The notes beneath the pieces were generated by a model, which saw only the letters and a list, made by a program, of their open reading frames with translations, had not been told where the DNA came from and did no database searches. Of a stretch of 64,000 bases of DNA, positions 9,440 through 64,000 are shown piece by piece (position 1 is the stretch's first letter; each line of letters starts with the position of its first letter). Origin of the DNA: Zootoca vivipara (lineage: Eukaryota); NCBI RefSeq assembly GCF_963506605.1, contig NC_083277.1, forward strand, positions 7,812,001 to 7,876,000, read 5' to 3'. The position numbers and the translations under genes were made by a program.

Positions 9440-10383
9440 TCAGGAGATACTGAGGGGAGTTTTATTTCCCCACAGACAAAAGAAAGGGAGGAGGGTCTCT
9501 CCAGAGAACGAGGCTCCTGAGAACGTGTAGAGTTCGGCTCCTGAGTCTGCGTCAGAAAAAGACACACGTCCCCCTTCATAGTCCAGAGTCACCCGGATCC
9601 TCCTGGGCTTCAGGGACAGAAGAGAGAAATCAGGGGAGGTGCGGACCCTGAACTCATCTCCCCTCTTCCACACAGCCCAGAACCCCTCCTCAGGGCATAT
9701 GCAGATGATGCCCTTTCTCTCCACAGACTTCCTGGCGACCCCCACTTCCCACCATTCCCCACTTTCCACATTGACTTCCCAGAAATGTCTCCCTGCTGTG
9801 AATCCCTCACGTCCCAACACACAAGGCCAGTTGCTGAATCTCTCAGGATTGTTGGGCAGGTCTTGCTTTTCGTCTCTATATCTCACACTTTTCCGATCCT
9901 CGGACAGGATGAGCCAGGGATGGGCTGTGTCTGGATCCAGAGTAACATTTGCTGTTGGGGAGAAGATGAGGGAAAGAGAAGATTAGGCAGAGTCATCCAT
10001 GAGACAGAAACAGACATCTTCTTAAAAAAACAACAACCCAAAACCCCAGATTCCCTTTCAGATAATTGGGATTTCTTTGCATCACTTGCAAGACTGAGAC
10101 TCCTTGCAGACTTTCATCAGAATAAATATCTTCCTTGTTGGTTTTTAAATCAGTTTTCTTCACTTATTTGATGTGTATTGTGTCTGCCCTCCTCTCAACC
10201 CAGGCATTTTCTAAGAGGAAAAACCACCCATTAAACCTTTTACTCAGCTCTTCTGTGTTAGTGAAGGAGAAAGAGAGGAGAATTGGAGGCGGCAGGAGAG
10301 GAGAGAAGCTGCTTTCCTCTGACAATCTCTGTGAGAATTGGCCTTTGGGGACCTCTGGGTTGGGGTGGGGGTGGGACCCCCCT

Positions 10384-10428
<45 letters not shown>

Positions 10429-10996
10429 TCGCATTTGCCTACTGCCCTTCATCCATAGGTCTCACGGTGGTTCACAGCATAAAAATACAACACAAAACAA
10501 CATATAGGCATCCCGCTCACTTTCACGGGGGTCATGTTCTGGGCCCACAAGTGAAAATCACACTAAGTGAGGAGCCTGTTTATTCCTGCTCTCCATCTCT
10601 CTCACCCACTTGGTCTCTCCTTGTCTTCCTACCATCTTGGAAGTTTAGGGCTTGCCGTCAGGGAAGAGGAGCAAGGTGGCAGGGCAATTTTACAAAGGAC
10701 TACTTATTCCATGATTCTCTTTTGGATTTAACATATAGCAGAAGACTAGTTCCCTGGGGGAAGGGGGGAATAACTCAAAAGGTTACCAGTTAGGGGCTTA
10801 GACAGTCATGATGCGCAAGTGTAGAGTTGCTGTATTCTGAAGAGCAAAAAAGAGGACACATTTGCCAACTTCTACTCTTAACCATGGATCGCTATGACGA
10901 CACTCATTTTAAATACCCCTACTCTATATAGACTTTCAAAGCTGTGATATATTGCTAGTAGCAATGTTCTGAACTTTCAATAATAATAATAATACC

Positions 10997-11037
<41 letters not shown>

Positions 11038-27100: not shown

Positions 27101-27434
27101 GGCTTTGGCCCAGCCGCTTCATCAGCTCTGAATCTACTTGTACTTGTCCTCCGCTCTTCCTCAGTAGCATGTTGGACGCCTTCCGACCTGAGGGGCTCAT
27201 CTTCCAGCGTCATAACTTTTATATGCCTGTTGTCTTTGTCCATGGAGTTTTCTTGGCAGGGATACTGGAGTGGCTTGCCAGTTCCTTCTCCAGGTGGATC
27301 ACGTTTAGTCAAAACTCTCCACTATGACCTGTCCATCTTGGGTGGCCCTGCATGGCATAGCTCATAGCTTCTCTGAGTTATTCAAGCCCCTTCGCCACGA
27401 CAAGGCATTGATCCATGAAGGCATTGATCCATGA
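24199..27434 (-). mobile_element. Full-length BovB (RTE-clade LINE)
   Basis: 9-bp TSD AGAGCCTGT (24190-24198, 27435-27443); (CAA)n tail; BovB-type 5' end cttcatggatcaatgccttgtcgtggcgaagggg. Confidence 0.96.
24211..27243 (-). CDS. BovB endonuclease-reverse transcriptase, uninterrupted (1010 aa from the first ATG)
   Basis: APE endonuclease motifs GTWNVR, LGISE, GDWNAK, IDYIL, SDH; RT motifs FIDYAKAFD, GVRQGCILSP, YADD. Confidence 0.95.
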   Translation of the reverse strand: MDKDNRHIKVMTLEDEPLRSEGVQHATEEERRTSTSRFRADEAAGPKPKGCSVADMPGSERKVRCCKEKYCIGTWNVRTMSGGKLDVVKNEMTRINIDILGISELKWKGMGEFSSGDYHIYYCGQESRSRNGVALIVNKRVAKAVMGCNLKNDRMISIRIQGRPFNITVIQVYAPTTGAEESEIDQFYEDLQHLLEMTPKKDVLLITGDWNAKVGNQEIKGTTGKFGLGVQNEAGQRLIEFCQENKLVITNTLFQQHKRRLYTWISPNGQHRNQIDYILCSQRWRSSIQSAKTRPGADCNSDHQLLIAKFQLKLKKVGKTTGPVRYNLNQIPYEYTVEVRNRFKDLDLVDRVPEELWMEARNIIQEAATKTIPRKRKCKKAKWLSNEALQIAEERRQAKCKGDRERYRKLNADFQKTARRDKRVFLNEQCKEIEENNRMGKTRDLFKKIGDMKGTFRTKITIIKDKSGKDLTEAEDIKKRWQEYTEELYQKDMEVSYTPDSVVADLEPDILESEVKWALESTANNKASGSDDIPAELFKILKDDAVKVLHPICQQVWKTQQWPEDWRRSVYIPIPKKGSAKECSNYRTIALISHASKVMLKILQGRLRQYVDRELPEVQAGFRKGRGTRDQIANMRWTMEKAREFQKNVYFCFIDYAKAFDCVDHSKLWQVLKEMGVPDHLICLLRNLYVGQEATVRTGYGTTEWFKIGKGVRQGCILSPCLFNLYAEFIMRKAGLDESQAGIKIAGRNINNLRYADDTTLMAESEEELKNLLMRVKEESAKYGLKLNIKKTKIMATGPITSWQIEGEEMEAVRDFTFLGSLITADGDSSHEIKRRLLLGRKAMTNLDSILKSRDITLPTKVRIVKAMVFPVVMYGSESWTIKKADRRRIDAFELWCWRRLLRVPWTARRSNLSILQEISPECSLEGQIMKLRLQYFGHLMRREESLEKTLMLGKIEGTRRRGRQRTRWLDSVLEAMNMSLTKLREAVQDRSAWRAMVHGVTKSRTRLND

Positions 27435-31973: not shown

Positions 31974-34900
31974 TCAGGAGATACTGAGGGGGGTTTGAAG
32001 GTCATTCAGACGAAAGAAAGGGAGGAGGGTCTCTCCAGAGAACGAGGCTCCTGAGAACGTGTAGAGTTCGGCTCCTGAGTCAGCGTCAGAAAAAGACACA
32101 CGTCCCCCTTCATAGTCCAGAGTCACCCGGATCCTCCTGGGCTTCTCATTCAGGGACAGAGGAGAGGAAACAGGGGAGGGGAGGGCCACGTACTCATCTC
32201 CCCAATTCTCCAAAGCCCAGACCCCATCCTCGGGCCTTAAGGAGAAGAAGTAGCTCTTTCTCTTCACAGACTTCCTGGCGACCCCCACATCCCAAAATGC
32301 CCCACTTCCCACATTGACTTCCCAGAAATGTCTGCCTGCTGTGAATCCCTCACGTCCCAACACACAAGGCCAGTTGCTGAATCTCTCAGGATTGTTGGGC
32401 AGGTCTTGCTTTTCGTCTCTATATCTCACACTTTTCCGATCCTCGGACAGGATGAGCCAGGGATGGGCTGTGTCTGGATCCAGAGTCACATTTGCTGTTG
32501 GGAAGAAGATGAGGGAAAGAGAAGATTAGGCAGAGTCAGCCAAGAGACAGAAACAGACATCTTCTTAAAAAACAACAACAAAAACCCCAGATTCCCTTTC
32601 AGATCAATGGGATTTCTTTGCATCACATGCAAGACTCCTCCTTGCAGACTTTCATCAGAATAAATATTTTCCTTGTTGGTTTTTAAAATGGTTTTCTTCA
32701 CTTTCTTATATTCAGTGTGTATTGTGCCTGCCCTCCTCTCTCTCTCTCTCTCTTTTTTGTAGAGAAACTGTCACATCATTTATTTATTTTAAATCGTTCC
32801 GGTTTCATGGAATATGCATTCCAGAAGAATCAGTTATTTTTTAAAAAAATAAATCTTTATTTCAATTCTTTAAAATATTACATAAAAAAGAAAATTAAAT
32901 ACATAAAGAAATAATAATCGATTCGATCATATATACCATTCAAAAACATATAACTGAGAAACAAAAAATGAAAAAATAAACAAAACAATAATCAAAGAGA
33001 AACAAATAATACTCCAAAATTCCTAAATTTCAATCCAATAGCATCACCAAATAATATAAACATTTACAAATAACAGAAAAAAGAAAAAAGAAAAATAGCA
33101 CAAAAAATAAAAAAGATCTTAACATTTTCCTATTGTTTGTGCACCACTTTCCTTTATTTAACTTCTCGTCTTGCTTTATCTAAATTACTATTTACACATG
33201 TTCTCCGTATTTCCCTGCATATCTTTCAATCTAAACAAATAAGCAGATCAATATTTATCTCTTCTTTTTTCAAATAGCCCTCAACACTTTTCTGTGGGAA
33301 TTGGCCTTTGGGGACCTCTGGGTTGGGGTGGGGGATAAGGACCCCCTGTAGTAGTAGTAAGTAGTAGTAGTAACAATAATATCACACTTGCCTACTGCCC
33401 TTCATCCATAGGTGTCAGGGTGGTTAACAGCATAAAAATATAACACAAAACAACACATAGGCGTCCCCACACTTTCGCGGGGGTCATGTTTTGGGCCCAC
33501 AAATGAAAATCACACTAAGTGGGGAGCCTGTTTATTCCTGCTCTCCATCTCTCTCACCCACTTGGTCTCTCCTTGCCTTCCTACCATCTTGGAAGTTTAA
33601 GGCTTGCCACCAGGGAAGAGGAGGCAGGTGGCAGGGCAATTTTACAAAGGACTGCTTATTCCATGCTTCTCTTTTGGATTGAATATATACCATAAGTGTG
33701 CACAGAACAATTTATTAAACTGTTAAACATCTGCATATGGACTCTCCTTAAGGGCAGGGGGATGTTAACTCTTGCCCTCCCAGACTCCTCCTCAAAGATC
33801 TTGTAGCTGAACCAGCGTCCTTTTAGTTCAGCCACAAGAAAAGGGTTGTTGCTAGCTTAAGATGTTGCTCTGTTGCAATACTCTGCTCTAGGCTAGGTGG
33901 CTTACATCTGAATCTAATGCACTGGAAAAATTTTCTAGTCTGAGAAAAAGAGGACACGTGGCAACCAGTCCTGAAAAAGGTCACATGGAAAAACAACCCA
34001 ACTCTAGGCAGGAATGAAACTCTTCCCTACTCAGTCTGATCCTTCTGGGTTATTTATCTCTCCCCCTTCTGCATCTTCAAGTCCACCCTCTCTGCCTTTG
34101 TGGTACAAACAGCAGGGACTAGAGTCAAGTTGTACAGAAGAGACTCTTTACGCCCCCCATGAAACACTAGTCCCCCCCTCCTGTGAATTGGGGTCTCCAT
34201 GTAAAATTTAACTCTCTGAAGATTTCTGAATGGCTGAACATCTGAGGAAGCAAAAATGCAATAGCTAAAAAATAATAAATATTTTTTACAAAACATCACC
34301 ATAACATAGCGTCTGTTGTTTCCTTATTTCAAGCAAAAGATGAAATCATAGAAGAAATAATTGCAAAAACAACAACTGTAGGCCTGTGTAGTGATGTTAA
34401 ATATTCTCCAAAAGATTATTCTCAATAATTTAATATCACTAGGCATAAGGAAATAACTAACTTGTTTAGCTGTAATTCTTGCATTGCAGGGGGTTGGACT
34501 AGATGATCTTTGTGATCCTTTCAAACTCTGCTATTCCATGATTCCATGGGAAAATCAGAAATGGTAAAACATACTAGAAAATGGCGGAATCCAATCATTC
34601 AAAATCCACAAATGAAATGCATAGCTGCCAAGTTATCCCTTTTTTTAAGGGAAATTCCCTTATGCTGAATAGGCTTCCTCGTGAGAAAAGGGAAAACTTG
34701 GCAGCTATGGAAATGGGGACCTGTACTGGAGGGCTGGAGGAAGGTTTAACATCTGCCCCAAGTAAACTGGTGGGGAAAAGCTGTTGAAACCGGAATTTCC
34801 AAGCATGCCGAAGTTTGGGGATGCCTGGACTAGATGATCCTTGGGATCCTTTCAAACTCTGCTATTCCATGATTTCAGAAATGGTAAACCATACTAGAAA

Positions 34901-37900
34901 ATGGGAAAATACAATCATTCAAAATCCATGAATAAAATGGGGACCTGTACTGGAGGAAGGTTTAACATCTGCCCCAAGTAAACTGGTGGGGGGGAAAGAA
35001 TTTCCAAGTACTGTATGCTGACAAACCAGATTGCAGAGGAAGAATCGGCAGAGTTTTGCACTGTAATTCCAAGGGTCTCGTGCAATGGGAAGTCCTCCCT
35101 TGTGGAATGGGGCCGATCTCAAAAGAATTGTGGGGACTCTCAGGCGACTGGGATGGCTGAAGCACCAGAAATGGCTGGTGAGGTTGAAACTGAGGAAGAG
35201 GGGGCTCTGGGAAACCAGCCTGGCAGGAGGTGGAGGAGGGACTGGGTGCTTGCGGGTGCCCCTTTTAACACACTTCACAAGCGGGAAATTCAAGCAAATC
35301 TTGAGAAGCCCCAAAAAGAACCTTTCCAGATTGTGTGGAGGGGAAACAAAATGCAAGGGAGGTTCCATTTGAATCAGAACATTGTAATGATCGAGCAGGA
35401 TTCTCCTTAAGGGCTTTTATAAGATATTTTAAGGCTCTGAGGCTTTTCCCCAGAATCAAGCAATATATAAATTTTATGAAAGAAAGCAAAATCTATTAAA
35501 TCAAGGGGGAAACCAGCATAATAGTTTATAGGCAGGAATGGAACACAAGACTGGCATGCAGGTTCTTCGTGGGGACAAGCTCTGCCTGCAATCCAAGCCT
35601 TCAAACCCTCTCCAGGTTCATTCATGGGACAGACAAAGAACCCAAACACCACTAGAGGACTGTTACCCACAGTTACGCCATTGATGGGGGTCCCAAAGTC
35701 TGCAGAACAGACGGTTCAACACCCATGAAATATCAGCCCCCATCCCTCCTATGAAATTGTTCCCCCTGGAAATTTACCTTTCTGAATCTGTTTTCTGAAT
35801 AACAGAGCATCTGAGGAAGCAAAAAAGATATAAAGTGTAAGGGCAACACTCTTCCACCTGAAATAAATCTCTACACAAAAGTAACACTTCATAACGTGGC
35901 ATCCTTAAATTCAAGTGTGGTCAAACCTCGGTTTTCGATCGTCTCTGTTACTGTACGTTTTGCGAGAGCCGCGCCTCAGAAATTGACCGTTTTGGAAGTC
36001 GAACATCCTTCTGGAGTAGATTACATTCGACTTCCAAGGCTTGACTGTACAATTATTAAATAGTACAGTGGAACCTCAGAAGCCGACCACCTTTGAACTC
36101 AAACGCTTCAGCTCCCGAACTATAGAAAAATGTAAGTGATTGTTTTTCGGAAGCTAAACATCTTGCACGGCTTCCGCAGCTTCTGATTGGCTGCAGGAAG
36201 CTTCTTCAGCCAATCGGAAGCCACACCTTGGTTCTTGAACCATTTCAGGAGTTGAACCGACTCCTAGAATGAATTAAATAAAAGAACCGAGGTACAACTG
36301 TAGAAAAAATAATTAAAAACAAGAAAATAATAGGAAGAATCTATGAAAATAACTAAAGCTTTAAAACTCAGCAATCATAAAGCACGCTTACAAATAATAG
36401 AATAAAAATATTCAGCATGAATCCTGATGGTCTCTGAACTTTGTCCCTGAAATTGGGCTCTACATTCTTGGACTGGAGGGGAGGCAAAGCAATAGGAATC
36501 CTGTAAAAGGAGGCAGAGGGGAGATGGAGGCAGCCTTAACATCTTCCCCAAGCAAAGTAGTGGGGTAAATTATTAAAACCAAAATTGTGAAACATAAGGA
36601 GAAATAAAGGTTGATGAGGAAGGCTTGGCCGAGGTCTCATGCAAAAGGAAGCCCTTCCTCACAAACCTTTTAAAAAAATCTTTCAGATTGTTACCAAGCA
36701 TAATTGTGCCCTTTGGGGCTCATGTGCTCTTGCTTCCATCTTCCATGTGGAAACTCAGGAGATCTTGAAGGCTGAAGCCCTAGATAGGGCAGCTGCAGGG
36801 GGACGTCTGAGGAGGAGACGGCTCAGGCCTTGGCTCCATTGCTGAGAAACAAACCTGAGCAGGAGACAGGGGGTTGGACTGGATGGCCCTTGTGGTCTCT
36901 TCCAACTCTATGATTCTATGACAGAGGGGGAACTGGGGGCTTCTTAATGCCCTTTGACTCCATTCAGAGCAGGAGAACCTCCAAAAGGACAACCCCAGAT
37001 TGTGTAGACTGGTAACCAAAAGGAAAAGGAGGTTCTGTATAATTGACGAGAGATGCACATGGGAGGAAAAAATCCTAACTTTGCTTTCTTTACAAGCTCC
37101 AGCGTCACAATGTACATGGGCCATTCTGGGGGACAGGAAATGAAGGCTGGAGCACCGAGAAGGAAGGTATCCTTGGGTTCCTCAATTCCATGCAATAAGA
37201 GCCTGGCATGTTCAGTTCTGAAGGAAGAATACAATTCCCAGTGTGAAACCCTGGCAGCCATTTTTCATTACCTTTCCATTGTTTCATTGCATCCTCCACA
37301 AGGTGATTTAGATCACAGGATTCCAAGATCCTGTTCCTCAGTTCTGGAGGGAAAGGCAGTGGCTTCTCTGGACTCTCTCTTTTCTCATACCTGGTGAAAA
37401 GAAAAACAAATTATACACATTGCAAAAGTAAAACCAAACCTCACAAAGGAAATGGCACTAATTCATTGGGGAGAATTGGGGTGCTACAAGTTCCAAAGAG
37501 GGGGTCCTGTTTTACCTGGGAAACCAAACAGATTATTATTATTATAAATTCTTATTATACCTGTGAGATGCTACAGGGAGTGAGTTCTAGGGCTGTCTTA
37601 AGCATTCCCCGTTGCTTGTTGATTGAAAATGCCCCGTGTATCTTAAGCACGTGCAGCGCGATCCTAAGCAGGTTTGAATGCAAGAGTGAAACAAAACTCT
37701 GAAGCAAGCTTCCCCCCCGCCCCTTGCCGGCAATAGTCATTTACACTGCCCTAGGAAAGGCCTCCGTTGAACCCAGTGGGACTTACTTCAGAGTAAAGTT
37801 GGTCGCAAGGGATCAGGGCCCTGCCTGCCTTGGGCTTCAAAAGAACTCCTAGATGTCTCCCCAACCTGATCCCAGAGTTTGATGTACCCTTCATATCCTA

Positions 37901-40900
37901 AAGGGGATTGCCTTTCGGGTCTGGGATGAATTTTGAGGGAAAGAGCAAATTTATCCCCGCCTTGAGCTATGAGCTATACTTCACTCAATGGGAGGGGAGG
38001 GGAGGGAACGGAAGGGAAGGGAATGTCTCGGGGGCGAAATTGACCATATGCTTAAAATGAGTGGACGTGGATGGCCGTTGTGTGTTGAGTGTTTGTGCAT
38101 CACTTCCACCAGGGCTCAGGTAGGAGCTAAAGTCTGTAATTTTCTCCTCCGTCGCACCATTAAAAACAGGTTGCTTTTTTCAATTAAGAGCTGCCTTCAG
38201 CCCCAGTCAGTTCTCCTAATGACAATACATTATATTTTCACTGTTCTCTCCCCCCCCCCAACTACACGCACACGCACAACCCCCAACTCCGAAAGAATGG
38301 GAAATCCTATGTTTTCATTAGACGTGATTAGCGAGAAAGTCCAAGAGGGAGGGAAATGATTTAAGGGGGGAGGGTTCTTGTCTGAACTAAATACCGGGAC
38401 CTTCTTCTTGTTTATTACTGTATTATTAAACCACCACGCTTTTAAATAAATTGGGATTTCGTACAGAAAGGTGGAGGGGCGAGGAGGCTGGTCGATGTGG
38501 CTTCCTTCAGATTAAATGCAGACCACAGCGATGGTCATTTAACCGACCTGATTGGATCTGGTGTTGGGGGTGAGGTGCGAGAGAATGATGATGATTTTTT
38601 AAAAGCAACTTTCCTCCACTCTTAGCTGCTGCCGGCAGCTTTGCGGGGCTGGAGGAGGCGGGCAGCGGCTGGAAGGCGGTTCCTCCAGTGGGGAAGAGGC
38701 GGAGGCTCCAGACACGGCGCCCAGCCTCTGCCTCTTCCCTGGCGCCCATGCCTTGGTGGCCACGGCAGGCGGAGGCTTTGGGCACAGCACTGCTTTGGCG
38801 CAGTGGACGAGGGCGGAGAGCTTGGCACTGTGGATCCCCGCGCCACTAGCCTCTATGGCTAAGACGCCCCTGGAGCACCATGTTTGAGGTTCTTGCATCA
38901 CGGCCTCATGGAGGGATGCTAATGAGAATGAGCCAGATCCACTTACCTCTGAAAGGTTCTTCTCATATCCTAGAGGGGGAAAGAGAAGGGAATTCACTGC
39001 ACACCACAGGCCACACTAGGAAGACCCTCTCAGACCCTGGAGTGGACGAACAGCCTGGCCCTCGGATGTCAGTCTGCCTGACACATGCCAAGGTTTTGGG
39101 TAGGGATGGTGGAATCAGCCAGTTTTGGTTTCTCACAGCTTTTATTTTTTCAACCTGAAATTATCAATTTTTCCAATATCAAGTTCTCCACATTTCCACA
39201 TCAGTTTGCAATTCTTGTTTAAAATCCTTATGAAAATCCACCAGCATTTAAGGGAATTTCACATTTGTGGATTCAATAGAAGATTCCAACCCATCTCATG
39301 TCTTAGATTATAATTTATTACAGTAATTTGAATCCAGTTTGCACTGTGCAATTAAGATGTAAGTAAGCCTACAGGATAATCCTACCAAGGAACTGTCCCA
39401 AATTGTCTTCCATAGAAGTCCCCAAATATCAAATTCTATTCTCCAACTGGAAATAAAAAAGCACCTGCAGCATAAAATGCCTCCAAAGGTGTAATAAAAC
39501 AGCTCAGTGTTTATTTGGGCGCATCCACACTTCTGCTTCTCCTGTGCCCAGAAAACACGGGTCCAAGTGGTTTTGCCTTTGCCCTGCCACTTTCCCTCAG
39601 GAAAAACCTGCTCCTTAGTGCAACATCAAAGCAAACGTCAATCTGGAGAAAACCTGGCTGATGTTTGCTCTCATTCAGCAGTAAACTGCGGCTTTTCCTG
39701 GCGGAAAGGGGTGGGACAAGCAGCAGTCTGGATGAGTCCCTCTGTCTTGCTCTTTGATCACTGTGACTGAGCACCATTTTGGGCCGATCTGGATCCATTG
39801 TGAAGGTGATCAACCCAGAAGTTGTGGAGGGAACAGGAAGAGAAGCTTGGTCAAGAGACTGGCTCATGTCGGAAGGAGGCCTGGATGCATCTTTGGCGAA
39901 GCCCAGCCCAGGGTAGGAAGGCAGCATTGCCAAGCAGGAAGGAATTTCGAGACAAATCATCAGCAAAGAGCAGAAAACCACCTCCAGTTCCATCAAGACC
40001 ACAGAAGAATCTCTGGTCTGCATTCAGGTGAGTTAAGCATCCCAGGTCTCTTGGGTCTTCCTGTCCATTACCGGTACAAACCTGAGTAGAGGCTCCATCA
40101 ACTGAGCCCCTGAACTCCTTGTATACATGAAAGGGGCACAGAAAGGATGGCAGGCAGCCTTTTCCTGGAGCCTTGGGCTGTTCCTGCCACCGTCTTACCT
40201 GCAGGAGTTCACTCACTGGCTGCTGACCCTTTTCCTCCATCTCCTGGATTATCTTCTCAAGGGAGGAGAGTTTCCTGGAGAGTCTGGCCAGCTGCTCATC
40301 CCTTCTCCCTGCAATCTCCTTCTCCACCTCTTCCACACAATTCAGCCGTTGTTTTTCTTCTTCTTCCAGGAACTGGCGGAGTTCTTTGAACTTCTCCACA
40401 GTCTCCAGCTTCTCCGTTTCTGCTAATTTCTGCAAAAAAAGAGGAGGTCTGAGTGTGGACGATGGTCAGCCTTCAAAACAGCAGGAAGAAAATGATGAGA
40501 ATTCCACAGGGAGGGCACTTCTGATTTTTCAGAGACATGAAACGTCCAGTGGCTAAAGAAGTAAACATGTATTCTGTGGGGTGGCCCTCTCCATTGCTCT
40601 TTCTGTTGACTTCTATTCGCAGAGGGCTACTGCCTAAAGCAGGTGTAGGCAATCAAAGGCCCAGGGGCTGGATGCGGCCCAATCACATTATCAATCCGGC
40701 CTGCAGACAGTCTGGGAATCAGCGTTTTTTTACATGAGTAAAATGTGTCCTTTTATTTAAAATGCATCTCTGGGTTATTTGTGGGGCCTGCCTGGTGTTT
40801 TTACATGAGTAGAAATGTGTGCTTTTATTTAAAATTCATTTATGGGTTATTTGTGGGGCATAGGAATTCATTCATTCCCCTCCCCAAAAAAAAACATAGT

Positions 40901-43047
40901 CCAGCCTACCACATGGTCTGAGGGACGGTGGACCGGCCCACAGCTGAGAAAGGTTGCTGACCCCGGACAAGGAGCTTTTTCCCTAGCCACGGGTATTTCC
41001 TGCATGTTTTGGGGCATGGCATAAGCAGAGTTCATAGTTGTCCAGAGAACATCCATGGACATAAAACACCCCTCAGTTCAAAGTGGAACCATTAAGGTGT
41101 AGGAAGGCAACAGAAACAGAGGAGGATGAGGAGGAGAAAGTGTAGAGTTTATCCCCATAGCTCCCCTGTTTCCTTTAAAGGTTCAAAATGCCCAGAGTTT
41201 CCTAAAAATGAACAAGAGTGCACATTTAGAAAGACAATTCTTTAGTAATATTTATGGTAAATCCGGATTTGGACTGATTTGCTTCCACCCTGGCCTGGCG
41301 GAGGATTTGTGGAATATCTGAAGGAATATTATGAAAATATGAACACACCAGTAGGTTTACTTTAAAAAATACAACAAATATATGTATAGCCGTTGTCAAA
41401 AATGTATATTTGAAATTGATATATGAGAAAGACAGGCAAGAAAGAGTAAAGCACCGAAACCTGAAAGTTGGAAAAATAAAACCAAGAGAGAGGAAAGAGG
41501 AAGTCAAGTTTGAAAGAACAAGTTTAGAGGAAAAGACTATATAGGAAGAAAAGGAGAGGTAAATAAGGTACGACACATGGTATTATTTGTAAAGTATCTT
41601 TATTTGAGATTTTTTTTTCTGTATGAAACCAATTTTTATTTGTATATCAAAATATCTGTACAATAAATAAAAGCAATAAAAATGGGGGGGGGGAGATTTG
41701 CTTCCACCCTCTCAGCTCACAAGAGTTCAGGCTTCTCCTTGACTACTTTTCACATAATGAATGACAAGGGGAAATAAATTCAATTTAGCTTCATTCAAAG
41801 GTGAACTTACCTAATTTGCTATTGCTGAATAAATATGGAGACCAAAACAGAGCAATCCTATGAAATTCACACCTCTTATATTTTCAAGGTTGACCCAGCC
41901 AGGTAAATCCATTTATGAGGGTAAAGTACAGATCAAAGTATTTATACATTTTCAGAATAATAAATTAATAAACAGAAATAGGGAGAAGCTGAAATGGGCA
42001 GATTTCCCCATCCCTCATCAGTACTGACTCGATTCTTCAAGTGCTTGTTCCCTCACTAGTAACAATACAGACACTTACCAGGAGGTCTTTGCTTTCCTTG
42101 TCCAGGTCTGCTTGATAGGCCAGAATTTCCTCTCTCTCTTTCCTCAGAATCTCCAGACGGCGACAGATCTCTCCCTAAAGAGAAAAGGGAAAACTCAGGT
42201 TTGATTGAGACACACAGAGACAAGATGAATAGTATGCGGGCTTTGCTATGCTGTAGTAGCAAAGTACTGGAGGAAATAAAAGTCCAGAGGTTTCCAACCT
42301 TTTTGGGTCCACGACTCCCTGAACCAGCTACCTTTTTTCTATGGGGCTCAGGGACCCAGTTAGTCCCCTCTTGCTTACAGACTTCTACATAGTCTTTGCA
42401 GATGCTACTCAGGGATATCAAGGGAGATCCCTTTGTCCCCCTGGCAGAAAGATTTCAACTCCCTCCTCTCAGTCATCCCAGGAGCCCCCAGGCTTCCCCT
42501 TGGCTGCTTTTTACATAATAAACAACCACCAATTCATGTCATGCCTACTTTGGACCTGAGAATTAAAAATAAAACCTCCCAAGAAGAATCCACAGCTATT
42601 TCTCATCCTAAAGATCCAGGGATCTCCTACCTTGTATTCCTCGAAAGCCTCCTCCAAAGGAATCACCTTGTGATTTTCATGTTCCTTTGATTTGTCACAC
42701 ACCAGGCAGATGGGGGCTTCGTGGACTTTGCAGAAAAGCTTCAGGGGCTCCTGGTGATCTTCGCAGACTCCTCCTTCTCCCTTTCCCTCTTGAAGGCTGA
42801 GATTCTGGGCTATTTCTACCACATTAGCCAGTTGCCGGTTGGGGATGAGACCCCTTCTCCGGACTCTTTGTCTGCACTGAGGGCAGGAAGCCTCTGCCTC
42901 CGATTCCTCCCAGCACTGGATCAGGCAGGATCGGCAGAAGTTGTGCCCACACTCTGGGATGGTCACTGGATCCTTGAAGTAATCCCGGCAGATGCAGCAC
43001 GTGGCTTCATCACGGAGACGCTGCAATTGACCCCCTGCAGCAGCCAT
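31974..43047 (-). CDS. TRIM27/TRIM39-like E3 ubiquitin ligase copy C (RING, B-box2, coiled coil, PRY/SPRY); 479 aa
   Basis: Exons 43047-42631 (417 nt), 42174-42079 (96), 40429-40199 (231), 38969-38947 (23), 37390-37272 (119), 35810-35778 (33), 32494-31974 (521). Canonical splice sites, consistent phases, no stops. Confidence 0.92.
34620..34709. mobile_element. 90-bp MITE (inverted second copy at 54723-54812)
   Basis: TIR CATAGCTGCCAAGTT. The 54723 copy has an 8-bp TSD CAACTATC, consistent with hAT. Confidence 0.8.
36066..36300. mobile_element. Degenerate Tigger/pogo-like MITE; related copies near 58137-58343 and 59580-59822
   Basis: ta-cagtggaacctc ... gaggtacaactg-ta termini. Confidence 0.65.
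41292..41694 (+). mobile_element. Short L1-type 3' fragment
   Basis: 16-bp TSD GATTTGCTTCCACCCT (41276-41291, 41695-41710); ORF2-end-like codons followed by an A-rich UTR; absent from copy B. Confidence 0.75.
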
Positions 43048-43099
43048 GGCTCCTTCGCGCCAAAGAGCCGAGTTAAGTTCCGCCTTCCCAGTTTTCAGC

Positions 43100-43142
43100 C
43101 ACGTGGAGTTTCCCTTCCTGGAAATGACTCAGTGACCACGTG
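43100..43142. promoter_or_regulatory. E-box, kB, GAS, AP-1, E-box cluster upstream of TRIM copy C
   Basis: CACGTG 43100-43105, GGAGTTTCCC (GGGAAACTCC on -) 43105-43114, TTCCTGGAA 43115-43123, TGACTCA 43125-43131, CACGTG 43137-43142. Confidence 0.65.
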
Positions 43143-45160: not shown

Positions 45161-47188
45161 TTAGAACAGAGTCTGGCTGTTTATGCAGCTCGAGCCGGTC
45201 TGAATTATCTGATGTGCAAGAAGGTTCTGCTCATCGCTGAAACTTTTCCCACAGTGAATACCCTGGTGTCTAGTGAGGCTGGATTCAAAAGCAAAGCTTG
45301 CCCAGCAGAGCGGACACTTGAATCTTTCGTTCCCTGCATGGACCCTCTGGTGCCTGCTGAGACGTAACTTGTAGCTGAAGGTTTTCCCGCAGTCTGCACA
45401 CTCAAAAGGTTCTTCCCCTGCATGGATCGTCTGACGAATATCCAGATTTGAGCTCCACCTGAAACTTTTTCCGCAATTGACACAGTCGTGCGGCTTCTTC
45501 CTGTGGTGGAGCCCCTGGTGCCGTGCAAAGTTTTGGCTGTGGCTGAAGCTCTTCCCGCACGTGAGGCACTCGTGGGGCTCCCCCCGCCCGTGTAGATCCT
45601 CTGGTGTGCAATGAGGCTCGTGTTCCAGCGGAACCTCTTCCCGCAGTCTGAGCACTTGTAGGGCTCCTCTCCTGTGTTGATTCTCTGATGCCAGAGAAGG
45701 TTTGATTTGCGGCTGAAGCCTTTTCCGCAAACACCGCAGGTACTCTGCTTCTTCTCCAGCCGCGGTTTCTGATGATCTCGTAGAACGCTCCAAACTGGCT
45801 TAGCTGGCTGGCGATGAGTTTCTGGTTCCACATCTCCATTCAATTCACTCCCTCGAAGTCGTCTCGATTCTCAGTGTCAGCTTCCTCCTCTCCTCTCTTA
45901 ATTCCTTCCAACCACACCTCATGCAATTCCCAATCCTTCTCAGTTCTCCAAGCGTCATCTGTTGGAATAAAAATAAAATGAGTATGTACGGGTGTGCATG
46001 CACATGTGTTCAGAGCCACAGAATTGTAGAGCTGGAAGGGACCGAAGGGTCATCTAGTCCAACCCCCTACAAAGCAGGAGTCACAGCTAGAGAATCCCTG
46101 GTCTCTACTGGCAGCAGCCATTCCAACCGCCTACAGCAGAAGTCCCAGTAAAGGAAGAACGGATACCAAAACTTATGGAATATGCAGAAATGGCGAAACT
46201 TAGTGGAAGAATAAAAAAACCAAGCTATCAAACTCTTTATAAAAAAATGGAAATGGTTTATTGAATATATACAGAAAAATTGTAAACAGATAAAACCATT
46301 AGTAGGATTATTGTAATAAACTGCGGTTTTATAAGAGTATATATTTATTGTTCTTCCTCTGCCTTTCTTTGCCCCAGAAGGAGCCCCTTGGCCAGGGCCA
46401 CTGCCTGGGAACAGGTCTTCGGGCCTCCTTCCTGGACCCAGCTCTGCATCTCCGGCGGCAAGCCGGCCAAGAACTGCTCCAAGATCACGAACTCCACGAT
46501 CTGCTCCCTGATGTGCCTCTCTGGCTTCAGCCACTGGTGGCAGAGGTACCAGAGGCGGCTGCAGACCTCGCGGGGGCCCTCGGCCTCCTGGTAGCGGAAC
46601 CAGCGGAAGCTCTGGCGCTGGGCCTCCATACCGAGGGCAGCCTCTTCCTTCAGTTGCCGGTCTCTGCCAAGGCCAGCCAGGTTGCTCCTGGAAGGCCAGT
46701 TGGGGAGCCAGCCCCCCTGCTCTGCCCTAATCTGCTGGCCAATGGAACGATGGGGAAGGACGATTTTGCCGCCACCCCACAGTACAGCCTGTGGGTCGCC
46801 CCAATCCGACCCGGGGAACTGCGAGGTCTTCAGGAACGCCTGCTACTAGGCTTCCCAGTGCCGAGACAACACCCCCTCGGTCTGTTCCTGCTTCATCTGT
46901 TCCACGGTCCGCCTCAGAAACTGCCCCATGGCGCCCGCTTGGCCTTCTTCCTTGAGACGACAGGCATATGATTCCTCGCTCTCAGGTGTCAACCCCATTT
47001 GAAGCCCCCGCTCTAACGTAGCTGGGAACTGAAGGCAGGAGGCTGAGGGTTCCCTGACTCATGCTAGAGCCATGTCCGCTTAGAGGGACGATTCGAACAC
47101 AGCTCTGTCCCTCGCTAGTGTGCAGTGTGGCAGAGGGTGATGGGCCTGCGCTTGGCCTTCCAGAAAAAGAGGGGCCAGAGCTCACCAT
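45161..47188 (-). pseudogene. SCAN and C2H2 zinc-finger (ZSCAN-like) pseudogene
   Basis: SCAN domain in ORF 46345-46629. The upstream WEAQWQ motif is mutated to WEA**Q (two TAG codons at ~46844-46849). The SCAN-exon donor is missing, with an L1 3' fragment (~46150-46345) in its place. The finger exon (start 45958) is split over two frames. Confidence 0.85.
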
Positions 47189-47340: not shown

Positions 47341-48540
47341 GGGGAGATACAATTCAGAAAGACGGGGTGCCTGCTACTCTCAGGAACTTTGGAAGCTGCC
47401 TTATATGCCTTATAACGAGTCGGGCTACTGGCTTAGTACTGGCAGCAGCTCTCCAGAGTTTCAGGCAGGGAGTCCATCTCTCCCAGCCCTGGCGATTGTA
47501 CTTGGGAATTTTCTGCATGCTAAGCAGCACATGCTCTACCCATCAGGCAGCACTTTCTGAACATGCACCTCATTTATTGCACCCCATGCACCAACCTCCC
47601 GGCAATGCAAAAAAATAAATCTCAGCCAGGCAGCATTTTAGCTGCAAAGCCAGGCAGGAAATGCATGGGAGGCTGTCCTCTGTCCCGCCCCGCTCCTCCC
47701 CTCACATTTTTTCTTGCCTCGCTGGGAACTGAGCCGTGGCTGTTGATTTAACCATTAACCAGCCACCCACCTCTATATTGCCAGCACGGACTGGCAGCAG
47801 CTCCCTAGTTTTGTAGCCCTACCTAGAGATGCCGGGGATGCATGCAAAGCAGACGCTCTGCCACTGATCTATGCCCCTTGCTGCTTTCCTGCAGCAATAA
47901 AAACCATTGCAAAAATAGCTCACTGCTTGGGAGGCTGCTGGTCCTAATGCAGCTACTGTAAATTCTTCTGTTAGCTTCTGAGTCCGGTCTTCAAGCTCCG
48001 TTTCCTAGAGCGGCCCAGGACATTTGGATGGGGGAAGTAAACAATGAGGACAACTTCCTGGGTCTAAGCCCCTCCCTCCTCCTGGCATTAGACTCCTGCA
48101 GAAGACAGACAGGTGGGTGATTTAAGCCATAAGCTGAAAGCTAGGATCATTCATAGTGGCGTGGTGGAATGGAATTAATTCATGCAATGCAATGCAAAAT
48201 AGGGAGGGGAAACCATTTAAAAATAGTAACCAGGCTCAGATTCATTCTTCCAGAGTCAACCTTTCTCCAGATCCACTTGTTCAAAAATCTGAGAGTGATC
48301 TGAGAGAGATTTCAATACTGCACTTGAGAAATTAGCGCGAATTAAAACCAGGGGATTTTGAATAAATTTGAGTATACTGTACTATCACTAAAGGCAAAAA
48401 TTAAAATAAAAAGTCCCAGAGCGGCCACAGATCTAAAAATGTCAGTAACCTCTACTACTGCGTAGGAGGCAAACAATTCATCAGGAAACTTCTTACTGAT
48501 CTGTAACCTATTTTATTTCTCTCCGACTTGAGCAGGGGAA

Positions 48541-54066
<5,526 letters not shown>

Positions 54067-57050: not shown

Positions 57051-58589
57051 GTGAGTTGCAGAAAGGATAGTTCCATAACCATTGCAGCAGCAGCAGCAGC
57101 AATAAAAATAAGGCTGGCTCCCTAGAGAGGCTGCTTAAGATTGCTGCCACGTGTTTACCCAGAAGTAAGGCCCCGTAGGATTCAATGGGGACCCTTCCCA
57201 AGTAAGTGCGTGCAAGGTTGCAGGTTGTAATCCTGTATCCGCTTCTCTGGGAATAAGCCCCCATTGAACTTCGTGGGGCTCGCCTCTGAGCGGACATGTA
57301 GAGAATTGGGCTCGAAATTTAGAAACTATGTGGGGTTTGTGGGGGTGTTTCTCCCCCACCCCCATATCGACTGGGGAGATTGCATCCAATCCTAAAAGGA
57401 TTCCCCTTTTTTGTTTCCTAAATCGATTGGGACTAGATTTGGGATGTCGTGTTTTCCATTTCCCAAAGGAGCTGGGAAGTGTGCCACGTTAAAGTTAGCT
57501 TGTATCCTGCCATGCAGATTTTTTAATGTCTCCTCTCTGTGACTTTTAACTTATTTTAAATTGGTTTTTAGCGTTCTGTTTTAATTGTTGTAACCTGTCC
57601 TGTGACCTTGGAGTGGAGGGCAGGTAATAATAAATCATTGTAAGTCCTCCTCAGGGTGGGCCCATTAAGTTAGTCATGTCTATTAACTTGCCTATCTGGA
57701 GTGTGTTCATTTGTTGGGGGATGTTCTAAAAGCACATACACCCCCCCCCCAAAAAAAATTCCTTGGCAGATCCTGTATCTACAATTCATGGTTTACTTGG
57801 CAGTTTATTATTATTGTTGTTGTTGTTACTGTAATTGAATTAATCTTGTTGAGTTCATTGGGGCTATGTGTTTAGAATTTTCAGTCCCCGCGAAAGCAAA
57901 CATTTAATCTCCGCTAAAATTTTGTTACTTGCCTACGATACTCAAACTCAAAAATGTTTAAACATTGTTTTATTATTATTTTCTTCTTTTATATAAGAAT
58001 ATTTTGCATTGATAAAAAAGTAAAATTCAATAAAAATTATTTAGTTTAGTGGCGACTAGTGGAAACTTTAGTTTTACCCAAATAGGAAGTTCTAACTGCC
58101 ATGCTGAGTTGTTGATCTGCTGTTTACAAATAAATACAGTGCACCCTCTGGATATGAACTTAATTCGTCCTGGGGGTCCGTACTTACCCTGAACAGTCTG
58201 TATCCAGAGGTGCCGCTTCTGCGCACGTGCGTGGCGTGATAGAGTGCTTCTGCACATGGGCAAAGTGCACAGAGTGCATTTGCAGATGCGCGCGCAGCGA
58301 AACCCGGAAGTGTTTGCTGCGTTTGCAACCTGAAATTACATTATGTAACCTGAGGTACCACTGTACATCTATTCGGGGGGGGGGGATGTTTAAACGTTTT
58401 AAAGAAACAAAAAATCTCAAGTGAGAACCACTGTAACCTTCGTTTGAGGAGCCATTTGGCACCTAGCTTTTATATCTGAGTTTCTAACACTGGTGTTGCC
58501 TTCCCTGAGGCATCTGAAGCGCCACTCTGGGATTCGAGACTTGGTGGATGGATCTCATTGGTGCTGCTGTGTTTATTTTCTTAGATCCA

Positions 58590-61500
58590 ATGATGGATAA
58601 ACAAGAGGAAGTTGATTGCAAGCCGATGATGGATGATGGAGGAGGAAGTCAGTCATTTGAAGCTTCCCTTGGAAGCTCGGGAGATTGGCTTGATGTGAAG
58701 GAGGAACCTCAAGAGAATTCAACCCAGCTATGGGAAACACAGTGGCAACAGTACTTGAATACAGTGGAGCTTTGTCCCTTGGGAACCCCACAGGAACCCA
58801 CCCCCTGGGACGATGCGCCGACCTTCCTGGCCTCCTTCGAGCAAGTGGCTGAAGCCTACCGGTGGCCCAAGGAAGAGTGGGCAGCCCGGCTCCTGCCTGC
58901 ACTGGGTGGAGAGGCCGAGCAGGCCTTTAAAAGCCTGGAGGGCCCAGATAGAGAGGATTATGGGAAGGTGAAGGCAGCCATTTTGCAAGGAGACACCATG
59001 AACAGGGAGAATTACCGCCAGCACTTCCGGTGCTTCAGCTACCAGGAGGCCGAAGGGCCCAGAGTGGCCTATACCCGGCTGCAGGAGCTTTGCTATCGGT
59101 GGCTGAAAGTCGAGAAGCACTCCAAGGAGGAGATCCTGGAGCTGCTGATCCTGGAGCAGTTCCTGGCTGTCCTGCCGTCAGAAATGCAGAGCTGGATGAA
59201 GGGGCACTGCCTCGAGAGCAGCACCCATGCAGTGTCCCTGGCCGAGGATTTCCTGATCAGACACTTGGTGTCCGAGAGAAGAGAAGAGCAGGTAAGAGAG
59301 AGCTGAATCAAGGACGAAATCGGTCTCTGCCTTTATCACGGGCCTTAACTCATAAGTGGACAATTTCCATAGAAATAACTCGGGTCTCGAATATTTGAAA
59401 GACCACCTCTTTTCCTACAGGCCTTCCTGGGTGTTAAGATAAGGAGAGAAGGCCCTCTTGGTACCTCCACCACCCTCAGATGGTGGTGGTCTGGGAATGG
59501 GCCGCCTTTGTGGCAGCTCCTAAGTTGTGGAACTCCCCACAGAGGTGTGTCTGTCACTTTCGCTGTACAGCTTTTGTTGTACAATCGCACCTTGGGTTTT
59601 GAACAGCTCTGTTCTCAAACGATTTGGCTCCCAAACGCTGCAAACCTGGAAGTGAGTGTTGCGGTTTGCGAGCTATTTTTGGAAGCCGAACGTCTTCCGC
59701 GACTTAGGATTGGCTGCAGGAGCTTCCTTCAGCCAATTGGAAGCCGCGCCTTGGTTTCCAAACGTTTTGGAAGCCGAACGGACTTCCGGAACAGATTCTG
59801 TTCTAGAACCAAGGTACGACTATCCTGAAGCTGCACCTTGGTGCTGGGACCTGCCTTTGGAATGATGCTGGTGCTGGTTCAGTCAGCTTAAAAAAATGTC
59901 AGAGAGCCAGTGTGGTTAGCGTGGGACTGAGAAGACCTGAGTTCAAATTCCCGTTTAGCTCATCTCGCTCTCTTGCAGCCTGTGCTACTTCACAGGGTTG
60001 TGACAGGGAGAACATTGGTCCAGGGGTGGCCAACTCCCCAGAGACTGTGATCTACTCACAGAGTTAAAAATTGGCAGTGATCTAACCCCCTTTTTGGGGT
60101 TCAGGTCAAAGTTGTTGAGTTTTTTCAGGGAGGAGGTAGAATGTTGAGCTTTTTTTAGGGGAGCCACAGTTGTTCACCTTCTTTGGGGGAGCCAGTGATC
60201 TACCACAGACCTCCAGTGATCTACCTGTAGATCACAATCTACCTGTTGGAAATGCCAGGATTAGTGCATTGTGGTGAGGGTGGAGGTCCCTGATGTGCTT
60301 TTGATTAGTGAACAAAGCTAAAATTTAAATAAATTTGCTAAATTGAACCCACAGGGCAGCAGATTCCCCCCCCCCGGCAAATCCACGTCACCGGAGATGA
60401 CTTTTTAAAAATCTCATACATTTTGCCCCAATTTCCGCAAAAGTTGATACCCTGCGGCCTGCGCTTCCTTCCAGAAGAGCTCAGGGTAGCAAACACAGTA
60501 AGATTAAAACACCTCTTTAAAACATCTAAAAACAGCAACACACACACAGATGTAAAGCTGGTGTACAACAACAACAACAACAACAACAACAGATGGAACC
60601 AAATCACATGTCAGCCTGCCAAAACAGAAAAGTCTTTTTTTTTTAAATATATTTTTATTAATTTTTCCAATTAAAACCAATTATATCACATTCATTATTT
60701 CAAATTATACACATATATATCAATCAAACCGAATGTTATGCCAAATCATCTAGAAATTTTTTTTTGGGTTCCCATGCTTCAAGAAATTGGGGATTCCTCG
60801 CAACCGTCCACTGCCGTCTTTTTTCTAAAGTTCAAATCGTCTCTCCGAGTTCATAATAATCCAGATCTTTCCCTTACAGTCACATAGATGTTTTCCTCTT
60901 TCAACCGATTATTTCCCAGCTGCTGAGATAAATGTCAAACAAAGTTTCACAAATGTTCTTTCTCCTGTGTGAGTTAATCAGTCCAGCCTCCCCATAAATC
61001 TTCTTGGTCTGGAGCGTCCCTATTGCGTCGACTCTCAACACGAAGCAGCGCCATCTTAAAAAAACTCAAATCACTTTCGTTTTCTCTCATAGATTAACGA
61101 TCTTTATAAAATTTACAGCTTTTCCAGGCAGAAGAACCAAACCTCACACCATGCATAGACTCTTGGTAAATTAATGGATCTCCTTGCCCTATAGCTGAAC
61201 TTAGCTTCAGGTCGCTGCTCCAATTCAAAGTGCGTCACAACTCATAAATCCTCCGAACGTGTCTAGGCACTCCTCCCATCCAACTAGAGGGGGGCTTTTC
61301 TCGTCAGCAACTCCTCATCTTCAAAAAATATGCTCAATAACAACAGTTTATAAAGTTCAACTCACACAGTCTTTTGCTTCTCTTTCACTCCAAACAAGCC
61401 AGGACATCATGTCTGGGAAGGTACGAAGTAACTCATATGAAAAAAAATAAAAAAGACTCGCTTCCCTTATCGCTCCGTCCCCATCAATTCTTCTTCCAGA

Positions 61501-64000
61501 TGAAATACAGCCTTTAACTCCTCACCCTCAGCAGCATAGATTTCTTGGCAGTAAACAGCGCTTCTGCCCCTCCTTCTGAAGTATGTCCATAGATTTAAGC
61601 CTAATTATCTTCTTTAATCATGGAAATCCCCGCCATGCAGATTAGCGTCCGGGAGTCCTGGCCCTCGTAAGTGCTTCAGCCCAAGCTCCCCCCACTCCAT
61701 AAACAGTCGGAGTGGGTCTGGGGGCATCGCGGGCCAGCGGCCCCTCTCCGTAACCCCCGGAGAGGGTAGGGGGTTGCCATTTACTCCCCTAGCAACCGCC
61801 AAATTCCTTACGAAGGTCAGAGGGATGGAAAACAGGTCCGCCATTCCTGCAGGCGGAAACCGGAACCTGCCAAAACAGAAAAGTCATGTAGATTTTCCAG
61901 AAAACGTCCGCTGGATTCCCCAGGAAAAAAATCTAAATTGGTGATTTAGCAGGTATATTAAAGCAACTTTTACAGGTGATTTAGGAGGTTTATTAAAGCA
62001 ACTTTTGGATTTCAATTTCCTCCACTGAAAAGGAACCATGTTACATTTCCATAATGTGCAAATATCTCTAATAGGTGCTAAATGATCGAGGGGAATGGTT
62101 CTGTTAAGAAACGACACCCCCCCCCCCCGCCTGATGGGTTTTGCATTATTCTTGTAGGTGCCTGCACTCCCAGAAGAAGGAGCTATGAACCTGCAGGAGA
62201 CAGAGAGTGAATCCTGGGAAGATGACACTGACATTGGTAAGAATTCCTTCAACCAGAGTTTATTTCTGCAAGCGTTTGGGCTTCCCCCCACCCAAGACTG
62301 TGGCTACTTCCCTCTTTGTATGTGGCTGTTTTGGCCGCAAAGGAATGGCATGCTCAGCCTGATCATTAGAAATAGAAGGAAATGGTTATAGAGGTTAGCA
62401 GGCACAACTTGGGTAATGATACCCACCAGCCAACAAAATCAAACTAAGTTGGGTAAGTTGGGGAAACACTTCTAAATATCTTCAGTAGATGAAATACAGT
62501 TTTGATCCAGTGTAAAGATACATTCAAAACAGATAAAATTGCAAATCATGGTGCATAAAAATCAATGATTTAAAAAATATATGAAAAGAACCGGATTTTT
62601 AAAATTTAAATTGGATTTTTAAAATAAATTGCTTTTGGAGGAAAAATCTTTCTAAAGATAGTTTTCTATTTAAGTTACATTATCGTCGAAAGGCTATTCA
62701 TCAGAAAACAAGGATTTGTTTTAAATTTTTCTTGTGTGCTAAAACTCAGTCTTAATGTTTTGTTTTGTTTTTTTAAAAAGTTTAACCACATCAGTCAACA
62801 AACATGGATACATATGCTATAATGTTATTGTTTTAGTTAAATAAATAGTTTAAATTGTTATTAAGGAAATGATTATTTTTCTCCTCCCAATAAAGTACAG
62901 CAGAAAAGTTGTCCAAATATAAACAACTTATTAAACCTCACAATAATTTCATAATTAGCTGTCTATGTATTTCTAATAGTATAACCAAATCAGTAATTTT
63001 TGATATAACTAAAAACTACTCTGAAAATTCCAAAAATGAAACCCTCATCTGGTTGTAAATATTAAGATTATACCAGCAAGAATGAGTCTTTCGGGGGGGG
63101 GGGATTTAAATTAACTCTTACTGACTAATGATTTAAATCAAATCCACCCTGTTGCAAAGTAAGTACAGTAGCAATCTGACTTTTCTGTTCAAGTCAAAGC
63201 CTGAAGAAAATCCTTATAGAATCAAAACTTAACCGTGAAATTTGTCAAAGGCCAATAGTCAAAATAGATAAAACTACAAAGATGAGAGTTAGTAATAATT
63301 TACTGTTATAGGTAAAGGGACCCCTGACCATTAGGTCCAGTCGTGACCGACTCTGGGGTTGCGGCGCGCATTTCGCGTTATTGGCCGAGGGAGCCGGCGT
63401 ACAGCCTCTAGGTCATGTGGCCAGCATGACAAAGCCACTTCTGGCGAACCAGAGCAGCACACGAAAACGCCGTTTACCTTCCCGCTGTAGCAGTTCCTAT
63501 TTATCTACTTGCATTTTGACGTGCTTTCGAACTGCTAGGTTGGCAGGAGCTGGGACCGAGCATTGGGAGCTCACCCCGTCACAGGGATTCGAACTGCTGA
63601 CCTTCTGATCAGCAAGCCCTAGGCTCAGTGGTTTAACCCACATCGCCATCTGGGTCCCCACCTATTTATCTACTTGCACCTATTTATCTACTTGCACTTT
63701 CGAACTGCTAGGTTGGCAGGAGCTGGGACCGAGCAATGGAAGCTCACCCCATCACGGGGATTTGAACCGCCAAATTTCTGATTGGCAAGCCCTAGGCTCG
63801 GTGGTTTAACCCACAGTGCCACCCGCATCCCATTTACTGCTTTAGTTTCCAGCAAGTCTTAGGTAGACAGGAAAGTGCCCTTCATCATTCTCTTGGTCCA
63901 TGTAAACACTTAACAGGAGAACTCTTTGTCATTTCAACAGATCTTGGGACAGTGCAGGAAGATGGAAGTGAGAATTATCTGCCTGAAGAGAACGGGCAGG
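58590..64000 (+). CDS. SCAN-domain gene with retained Gypsy capsid N-terminal domain (ZSCAN-like); 3' part beyond the window
   Basis: Exons 58590-59291 (acceptor ttttcttag at 58584, donor GTAAG), 62158-62236 (79 nt) and 63941-64000+ (open frame). The capsid-like segment [41 protein letters not shown]...[10 protein letters not shown] is followed by SCAN (RQHFR...LLILEQFL...AEDFL). Fingers are not visible in the window. Confidence 0.85.
60635..61865 (-). mobile_element. Non-coding, non-autonomous L1-like retroelement (1.23 kb)
   Basis: 20-bp TSD CCTGCCAAAACAGAAAAGTC (60615-60634, 61866-61885); 5' end TTCCGGTTTCCGCC...AATGGCGG; AATAAA plus poly-A tail; no substantial ORF. Confidence 0.8.
63310..63831 (-). 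mobile_element. Sauria SINE (63310-63658) plus a tandem partial second copy (63660-63831)
   Basis: Reverse complement of the SINEs at 50755 and 55807; 5' half duplicated. Confidence 0.88.

Follow-up and report, generated by a model that had tools for sequence, protein, structure and literature searches.

The window, a stretch of 64,000 nucleotides from Zootoca vivipara (contig NC_083277.1, C2 in the coordinates below), contains a forward-strand gene in which the SCAN domain is preceded by the remainder of a Gmr1-like Gag capsid, the form known as extended SCAN (ESCAN). Two further SCAN loci and two TRIM genes lie upstream. The features, in window positions, are as follows:

58585..59291 (+): first coding exon of the ESCAN gene, with its ATG at 58590, encoding an acidic leader, the W..QWQ motif and, in full, the ESCAN module
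58695..58754 (+): VKEE and WETQWQQY motifs, common across the family
58797..59003 (+): N-terminal lobe of a Gmr1-like Gag capsid (the 'E' of ESCAN), from sequence homology, fold and purifying selection
59007..59258 (+): SCAN domain, the C-terminal lobe of the capsid (Pfam PF02023, E 1.6e-35)
62158..62236 (+): short acidic linker exon, from tblastn of protein model P0036, with AG and GT in the sequence
63941..64000 (+): start of the last exon, which continues past the window to C2:7877940 and encodes 14 C2H2-like fingers
48532..49302 (+): neighbouring SCAN exon whose lobe is eroded, with a likely zinc-finger exon at 53413-54066
45161..46842 (-): SCAN-zinc-finger pseudogene; its W..QWQ motif contains two stops, and its finger exon is frameshifted
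31977..43128 (-): nearest TRIM gene, with RING-B-box at 42511-43128, coiled coil at about 40.2 kb and PRY/SPRY at 31977-32498 (Pfam)
9443..21924 (-): second TRIM gene, with RING-B-box at 21361-21924 and PRY/SPRY at 9443-9955 (Pfam)

The exons of both TRIM genes were linked on the basis of their order; in all, Pfam recognises RING-B-box in three exons of the window and PRY/SPRY in two. Also present are what we take to be a Copia-type RT/RNase H frame (498-1922, -), a LINE fragment (2297-4196, +) and an RTE/BovB-like frame of 1036 aa (24211-27321, -), all unrelated to the ESCAN finding.

The peptide encoded at 58806-59255 (+), on which the initial annotation was centred, is indeed followed by SCAN in a stop-free translation. 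That it belongs to a spliced gene is supported both by the AG (58583-4) and GT (59292-3) read from the sequence at the ends of the ESCAN exon and by the exon-by-exon fit of a RefSeq-type protein model. This model, P0036 (ZSCAN2-like, from Zootoca vivipara, according to its source), does not differ from the gene across the segment in question, and the ESCAN exon corresponds to its residues 80-316 at 99.6%. Mapping of P0036 by tblastn gives exons at 58585-59291 and 62158-62236 and a last exon running from 63941 to C2:7877940. The gene is a zinc-finger gene, which the initial annotation missed, its tandem C2H2 array being assigned through this mapping. It combines SCAN, a contiguous Gmr1-like N-lobe extension and a C-terminal tandem C2H2 array, the features of an ESCAN-zinc-finger gene as defined in a passage of a review (PMC3406341), which is used here in place of the alignment and boundaries of 2011. 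P0036 has no match to PF01352, and a KRAB-A regular expression returns nothing; the KRAB box that marks KRAB zinc-finger repressors was not found.

Residues 1-79 of P0036 map to the upstream neighbouring SCAN gene (49195-51557, +). The joining of upstream SCAN exons to the ESCAN exon looks like either read-through splicing or an annotation artefact in the form of a fused model. Three raw RNA runs from a single study, sampled at about 6% of each, show weak minus-first-mate coverage on the last exon; RNA coverage is low and lies on the expected strand, and these reads contain no splice joint.

The two neighbouring SCAN genes had been described as sharing the W..QWQ motif while having eroded the segment that follows. 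This holds for the exon at 48.5 kb, which keeps the motif ahead of an eroded lobe, but not for the neighbour at 46.3 kb, a pseudogene in which the motif itself is broken; a profile of the lobe scores on neither. The VKEE motif of the ESCAN exon is presumably a SUMO-consensus-like psi-K-x-E, which occurs in 106 of the 198 segments upstream of the module, against 4% in shuffles, and W..Q[WL]Q.[FY] is found in 141 of the 198. Homology of the W..QWQ motif to the coils upstream in Gag is not supported, as 0 of 85 score at 8 bits by profile, even though 62 of the 85 fit a loose regular expression.

Pfam calls only SCAN in this exon, leaving the 69 codons ahead of it without a family; the SCAN domain itself matches solved SCAN domains at E 1.7e-24 to 1.2e-15. 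The proposal that the segment ahead of SCAN is the N-terminal lobe of a Gypsy-type capsid is upheld by matches to Gag sequences and by an alignment to the Arc N-lobe, described below. Among 1.84 billion representatives searched, 5,407 match at E<=0.001; one of them is the fish Gag P0148, to which lobe and SCAN together align over 149 aa, without a gap and at 43% identity. The upstream 72 aa alone match 115 of 119 Gmr1-like Gag or Gag-Pol proteins at E<1e-3, with a median identity of 42% (38% for SCAN against the same set), and none of 200 shuffled lobes passes this threshold. The Gag set comprises relatives of P0148 (120 of 124); these come from fish where a source is named, many being unnamed, and include one lungfish host gene. 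The stretch 58797-59258 is a two-lobed Gmr1-like Gag capsid. Among the other searches, the ESM Atlas offered DUF7041 (0.93) and Retrotrans_gag (0.88), as leads only. A viral fold library gave nothing at E<=0.001, its best entry being ORF1 of a fungal metavirus (E 0.049), and a profile search of solved structures found SCAN, Gag only via parts outside the capsid, and no solved N-lobe by sequence.

An AlphaFold model of the ESCAN module, built from a 70-row alignment, has a pLDDT of 89 and consists of two helical lobes, connected in the monomer by a long single helix (residues 55-78). In the Foldseek comparison with Ty3 and Arc that had been suggested, the capsids of Arc, MLV, Ty3 and PNMA2 appear below the SCAN structures (E 0.011-0.71); whole-length capsid matches, to Arc, Ty3, PNMA2 and dArc1, are weak (E 0.01-1.1), with rmsd values of 13-15 A over the full length. 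Superposed by VIA-align, residues 1-70 fall on the Arc N-lobe (Z 6.4, rmsd 2.4, 67 aligned), a structural match to a capsid N-terminal domain, and on residues 50-119 of dArc1 (Z 6.1). They also align with several capsid C-lobes, the fold being common to both. The module thus has the two-lobe capsid fold of the Arc, PNMA2 and PEG10 type at Z 5-7. Such values are middling, and it is the Gag sequence match that carries the capsid assignment. A single-sequence model of the lobe alone is poor (pLDDT 63) and has no clear match, the best being to AAA lid domains (Z 5.6).

Among the relatives of P0148, the Gmr1-like order of capsid, CCHC knuckle, protease, integrase and RT was found in all eight polyproteins examined; this gene order is described in a part of 10.1101/2025.03.03.638093. 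When three Gmr1 polyproteins were compared with the window and the next 50 kb downstream, only their capsid part matched, and no match to nucleocapsid, protease, integrase or RT was found in that span. The initial statement that there is no pol at the gene therefore stands, and the succession of Gag, protease, integrase and RT that would mark a Gmr1-like LTR retrotransposon is not found there. The likeness to the Gag capsids of fish Gmr1-like elements (Metaviridae) is confined to the two lobes; the window gene is without nucleocapsid knuckle, protease, integrase or RT, and it has introns.

The full-capsid SCAN gene is not new in kind. According to a passage of PMC3406341, SCAN goes back to the domestication of a Gmr1-like element's full-length capsid gene, and mammalian SCAN represents the C-terminal part of the capsid only. 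The same passage, citing Emerson and Thomas 2011, names the full-capsid form ESCAN and reports it joined to zinc fingers in Anolis. These Anolis genes, as described there, resemble the window gene in combining a full Gmr1-like capsid with C2H2 fingers in a lizard host gene; Anolis proteins also occur among the protein-search matches and group in the same clade. The window gene differs in being lacertid and in that no KRAB was found. New here, relative to the Anolis work, are the counts, the selection estimates and the test of distance to TRIM genes. An expansion of SCAN in reptiles is described in parts of PMC8321522 and 10.1101/2025.03.03.638093, and a recent survey of domesticated capsids (PMC10516033) does not include SCAN genes. 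A search of the openly available literature found no functional study of ESCAN.

Mammalian ZNF24, ZNF174, MZF1, ZSCAN10 and PEG3 likewise have SCAN followed by a C-terminal finger array; the solved structures from mammalian SCAN zinc-finger proteins comprise the C-lobe only, whereas the window gene has both lobes. ESCAN also belongs to the same two-lobe fold family as the assembling domesticated capsids Arc, dArc1, PNMA2 and PEG10 and the capsid restriction factors Fv1 and Drt2, from which its origin is separate according to a part of PMC8321522. It differs from these in its 81 kDa DNA-binding tail and in forming a large multigene family.

Nor is such a gene rare, as had been implied. Searched with the lobe as a single protein query, this genome yields at least 44 matches among the 150 scored of 288 candidates, a lower bound, and none contains a stop; 35 of the ESCAN exons lie on C2 at 6.2-11.4 Mb and six on C13. 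SCAN exons number at least 150 (645 candidates). Two ESCAN exons, at C2:8249240 and C2:8250494, lie 1.25 kb apart. The feature is real and was correctly recognised, but it already has a name and, as one of at least 44 copies, is ordinary as a discovery.

One protein search returned 506 matches; those listed, 120 in number, all carry the names of lizards or snakes, from geckos to pythons. Two or more C2H2 fingers are present in 106 of the 120; a scan of three of the other 14 found DNA-binding domains of different types in them (CENP-B/Tc5, Myb/SANT and Brinker). At least two lobe motifs occur in 24 of the 120, some of which are perhaps fused gene models. A quick tree of 60 rows separates the 28 squamate rows from the rest by a branch with SH-aLRT 100, and places the window gene in a group with proteins of Podarcis and Lacerta (99). 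A lungfish protein, P0354 (Protopterus annectens), has a full ESCAN with KRAB and C2H2 fingers and is 48% identical to fish Gag capsid; it is placed between the fish Gags and the squamate ESCANs on a long branch, the position being unsure. Either the ESCAN-KRAB-zinc-finger form is older than tetrapods or the capsid was captured twice. A search seeded with the lungfish protein found three proteins only.

The lobe is conserved. Across 30 genes, made up of the window gene plus 29 paralogues and taken as the best 30 of 44 matches, omega comes to 0.30 in the lobe and 0.23 in SCAN, with lobe dN biased downward because the paralogues were chosen by lobe similarity; dN is below dS in 431 of 434 usable pairs. 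Independent of that choice are two lacertid orthologues, which share 68 of 69 residues in the lobe, 77 of 84 in SCAN and 425-437 of 560 in the finger region. The dN/dS comparison that had been proposed thus points to constraint rather than neutral evolution of the segment, and a lobe under purifying selection is a lobe that does something. Compared with Gag, 19 of the 28 conserved lobe positions are kept in ESCAN, being at least 80% conserved both in 44 ESCAN rows and in 25 Gag rows, and nine are changed.

The protein is probably a nuclear, DNA-binding zinc-finger regulator whose capsid module mediates oligomerisation. This reading is favoured because the partners of ESCAN are DNA-binding domains, because a SUMO-like motif precedes the module, and by analogy with mammalian SCAN zinc-finger proteins, which are described in a part of 10.1101/2025.03.03.638093 as forming selective dimers, binding transposon sequences and anchoring nucleosomes. 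Beside the observed homology, fold, gene structure, family size and purifying selection, we infer a nuclear action, dimerisation, targets and a role of the N-lobe along the following lines, with a mechanism carried over from mammalian proteins that have no N-lobe. The array of 14 fingers would pick the target DNA, likely transposon-derived as in the mammalian proteins; SCAN would dimerise the protein with selected family members; the retained N-lobe may add a second protein-binding surface; and the protein would regulate chromatin within the nucleus by binding DNA. Against this stand the better conservation of the lobe than of SCAN in orthologues and the retention of 19 of 28 Gag positions, which plain dimerisation does not explain, as well as the presence of a young Gmr1-like capsid target in the genome and the thin RNA support.

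Retention of the Gag positions bears also on whether the N-lobe keeps capsomer contacts, forming pentamer or hexamer rings or open lattices that would cluster zinc-finger arrays, or allowing short isoforms to form shells. Both lobes are intact and under purifying selection, the model has whole-length if weak matches to the Arc, Ty3, PNMA2 and dArc1 capsids, and the 24 listed relatives with at least two lobe motifs would also be in keeping with such contacts. Sixty tails of 81 kDa would occupy about 5,900 nm3, against an interior of 1,400 nm3 given for the T=1 PNMA2 shell in a part of PMC10945824; the full-length protein is therefore unlikely to form closed T=1 shells, an argument that leaves open rings unaffected. 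The one long helix between the lobes in the model and the large full-length rmsd to capsids weigh further against capsomer contacts, as do the nine changed Gag positions and the solved SCAN domains, which are dimers by their entry titles. On balance, such assembly is improbable, and oligomerisation of a nuclear regulator by its capsid module is preferred.

It has been suggested, in speculation reported in a 2015 review (PMC4592553), that SCAN targets zinc-finger proteins to capsids; experimental evidence is lacking according to the same text. On this idea, ESCAN would restrict Gmr1-like elements by binding to, or co-assembling with, their Gag capsid. A potential target exists in the genome, given a young family of Gmr1-like elements with open frames. 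With a fish Gag-integrase query, all 55 scored candidates (of 5,629 at first look) have open frames of 924-1496 aa, and six copies (L038-L043), with integrase before RT, are 96.6-99.0% identical in DNA. The LTR family is young, high-copy and spread over many contigs; Gmr1-like elements are said to be depleted in reptiles in a part of 10.1101/2025.03.03.638093. The resident capsid is only about 23-25% identical to the gene and 22-26% to the 16 paralogues aligning over the capsid, compared with the lobe median of 42% to fish elements, and resident elements score 20-22 bits with the lobe profile, the median of the fish set being 62. There is thus no sign that ESCAN tracks the resident element, which counts against co-assembly and leaves a looser binding unaffected. 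Selection over the whole lobe is, moreover, purifying and not diversifying. Distant capsids are able to restrict, as Fv1 does, so the low resident identity only lowers the probability of restriction, which nonetheless seems very unlikely here.

The initial annotation had further proposed a linked defence cluster of capsid and TRIM genes. In its strong form, ESCAN and the neighbouring TRIM-PRY/SPRY proteins would be a dedicated, physically interacting module. The gene lies 26 kb from a PRY exon, ESCAN and PRY exons occur together both on C2 at 6-11 Mb and on C13 at 30-40 Mb, and the two SPRY exons of the window diverge in their middle part. Within C2 6.2-11.4 Mb, the median distance to the nearest PRY is 61 kb for ESCAN exons (n=35) and 54 kb for the other listed SCAN exons (n=62), among which further ESCANs are possibly hidden (p=0.78), and random points are equally close in 30% of 2000 draws. 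ESCAN exons are therefore no closer to PRY/SPRY than other SCAN exons, and a special link to the TRIM genes is not supported. The genome contains 149 PRY matches, most on the same arm, and C13:30-40 Mb is a second region in which the two families co-occur.

The region also flanks MHC class I genes, whose exons form a cluster at C2:4.66-6.14 Mb, some 1.7 Mb from the gene; in mammals, clusters of TRIM and ZSCAN genes likewise flank the MHC. The position of the class I cluster agrees with PMC9679377, which places the squamate MHC at one end of chromosome 2 and makes no mention of TRIM or SCAN. The neighbourhood of ESCAN and TRIM genes likely reflects the expansion of both families within one MHC-flanking immune-gene region, and a dedicated module of the two is extremely unlikely. 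Beside the MHC class I genes, at C2:4.79-5.06 Mb, lie about ten open frames of 566-584 aa that contain SCAN; one of them (L044), on inspection, has no C2H2 finger, CCHC knuckle or lobe motif. The description of the PRY/SPRY array as diversifying is fair for one pair, the exons at 9443-9955 and 31977-32498 (-), whose middle part is divergent (pN 0.096 against pS 0.044). The two exons are identical in their initial 63 aa and across most of their end. The divergence, with pN above pS, may reflect either patchy gene conversion or positive selection.

The value of the gene lies in providing a test case for the proposal that the first function of SCAN was the binding of retroelement capsids. With a strongly conserved complete capsid module and young Gmr1-like elements in one genome, oligomer state and binding to Gag are directly measurable. 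It is conceivable, if rather unlikely, that dozens of squamate transcription factors carry a capsid that still assembles, either into rings that cluster finger arrays or by docking on young Gmr1-like capsids. If so, lizards would preserve the ancestral, capsid-using form of SCAN that has been lost in mammals.
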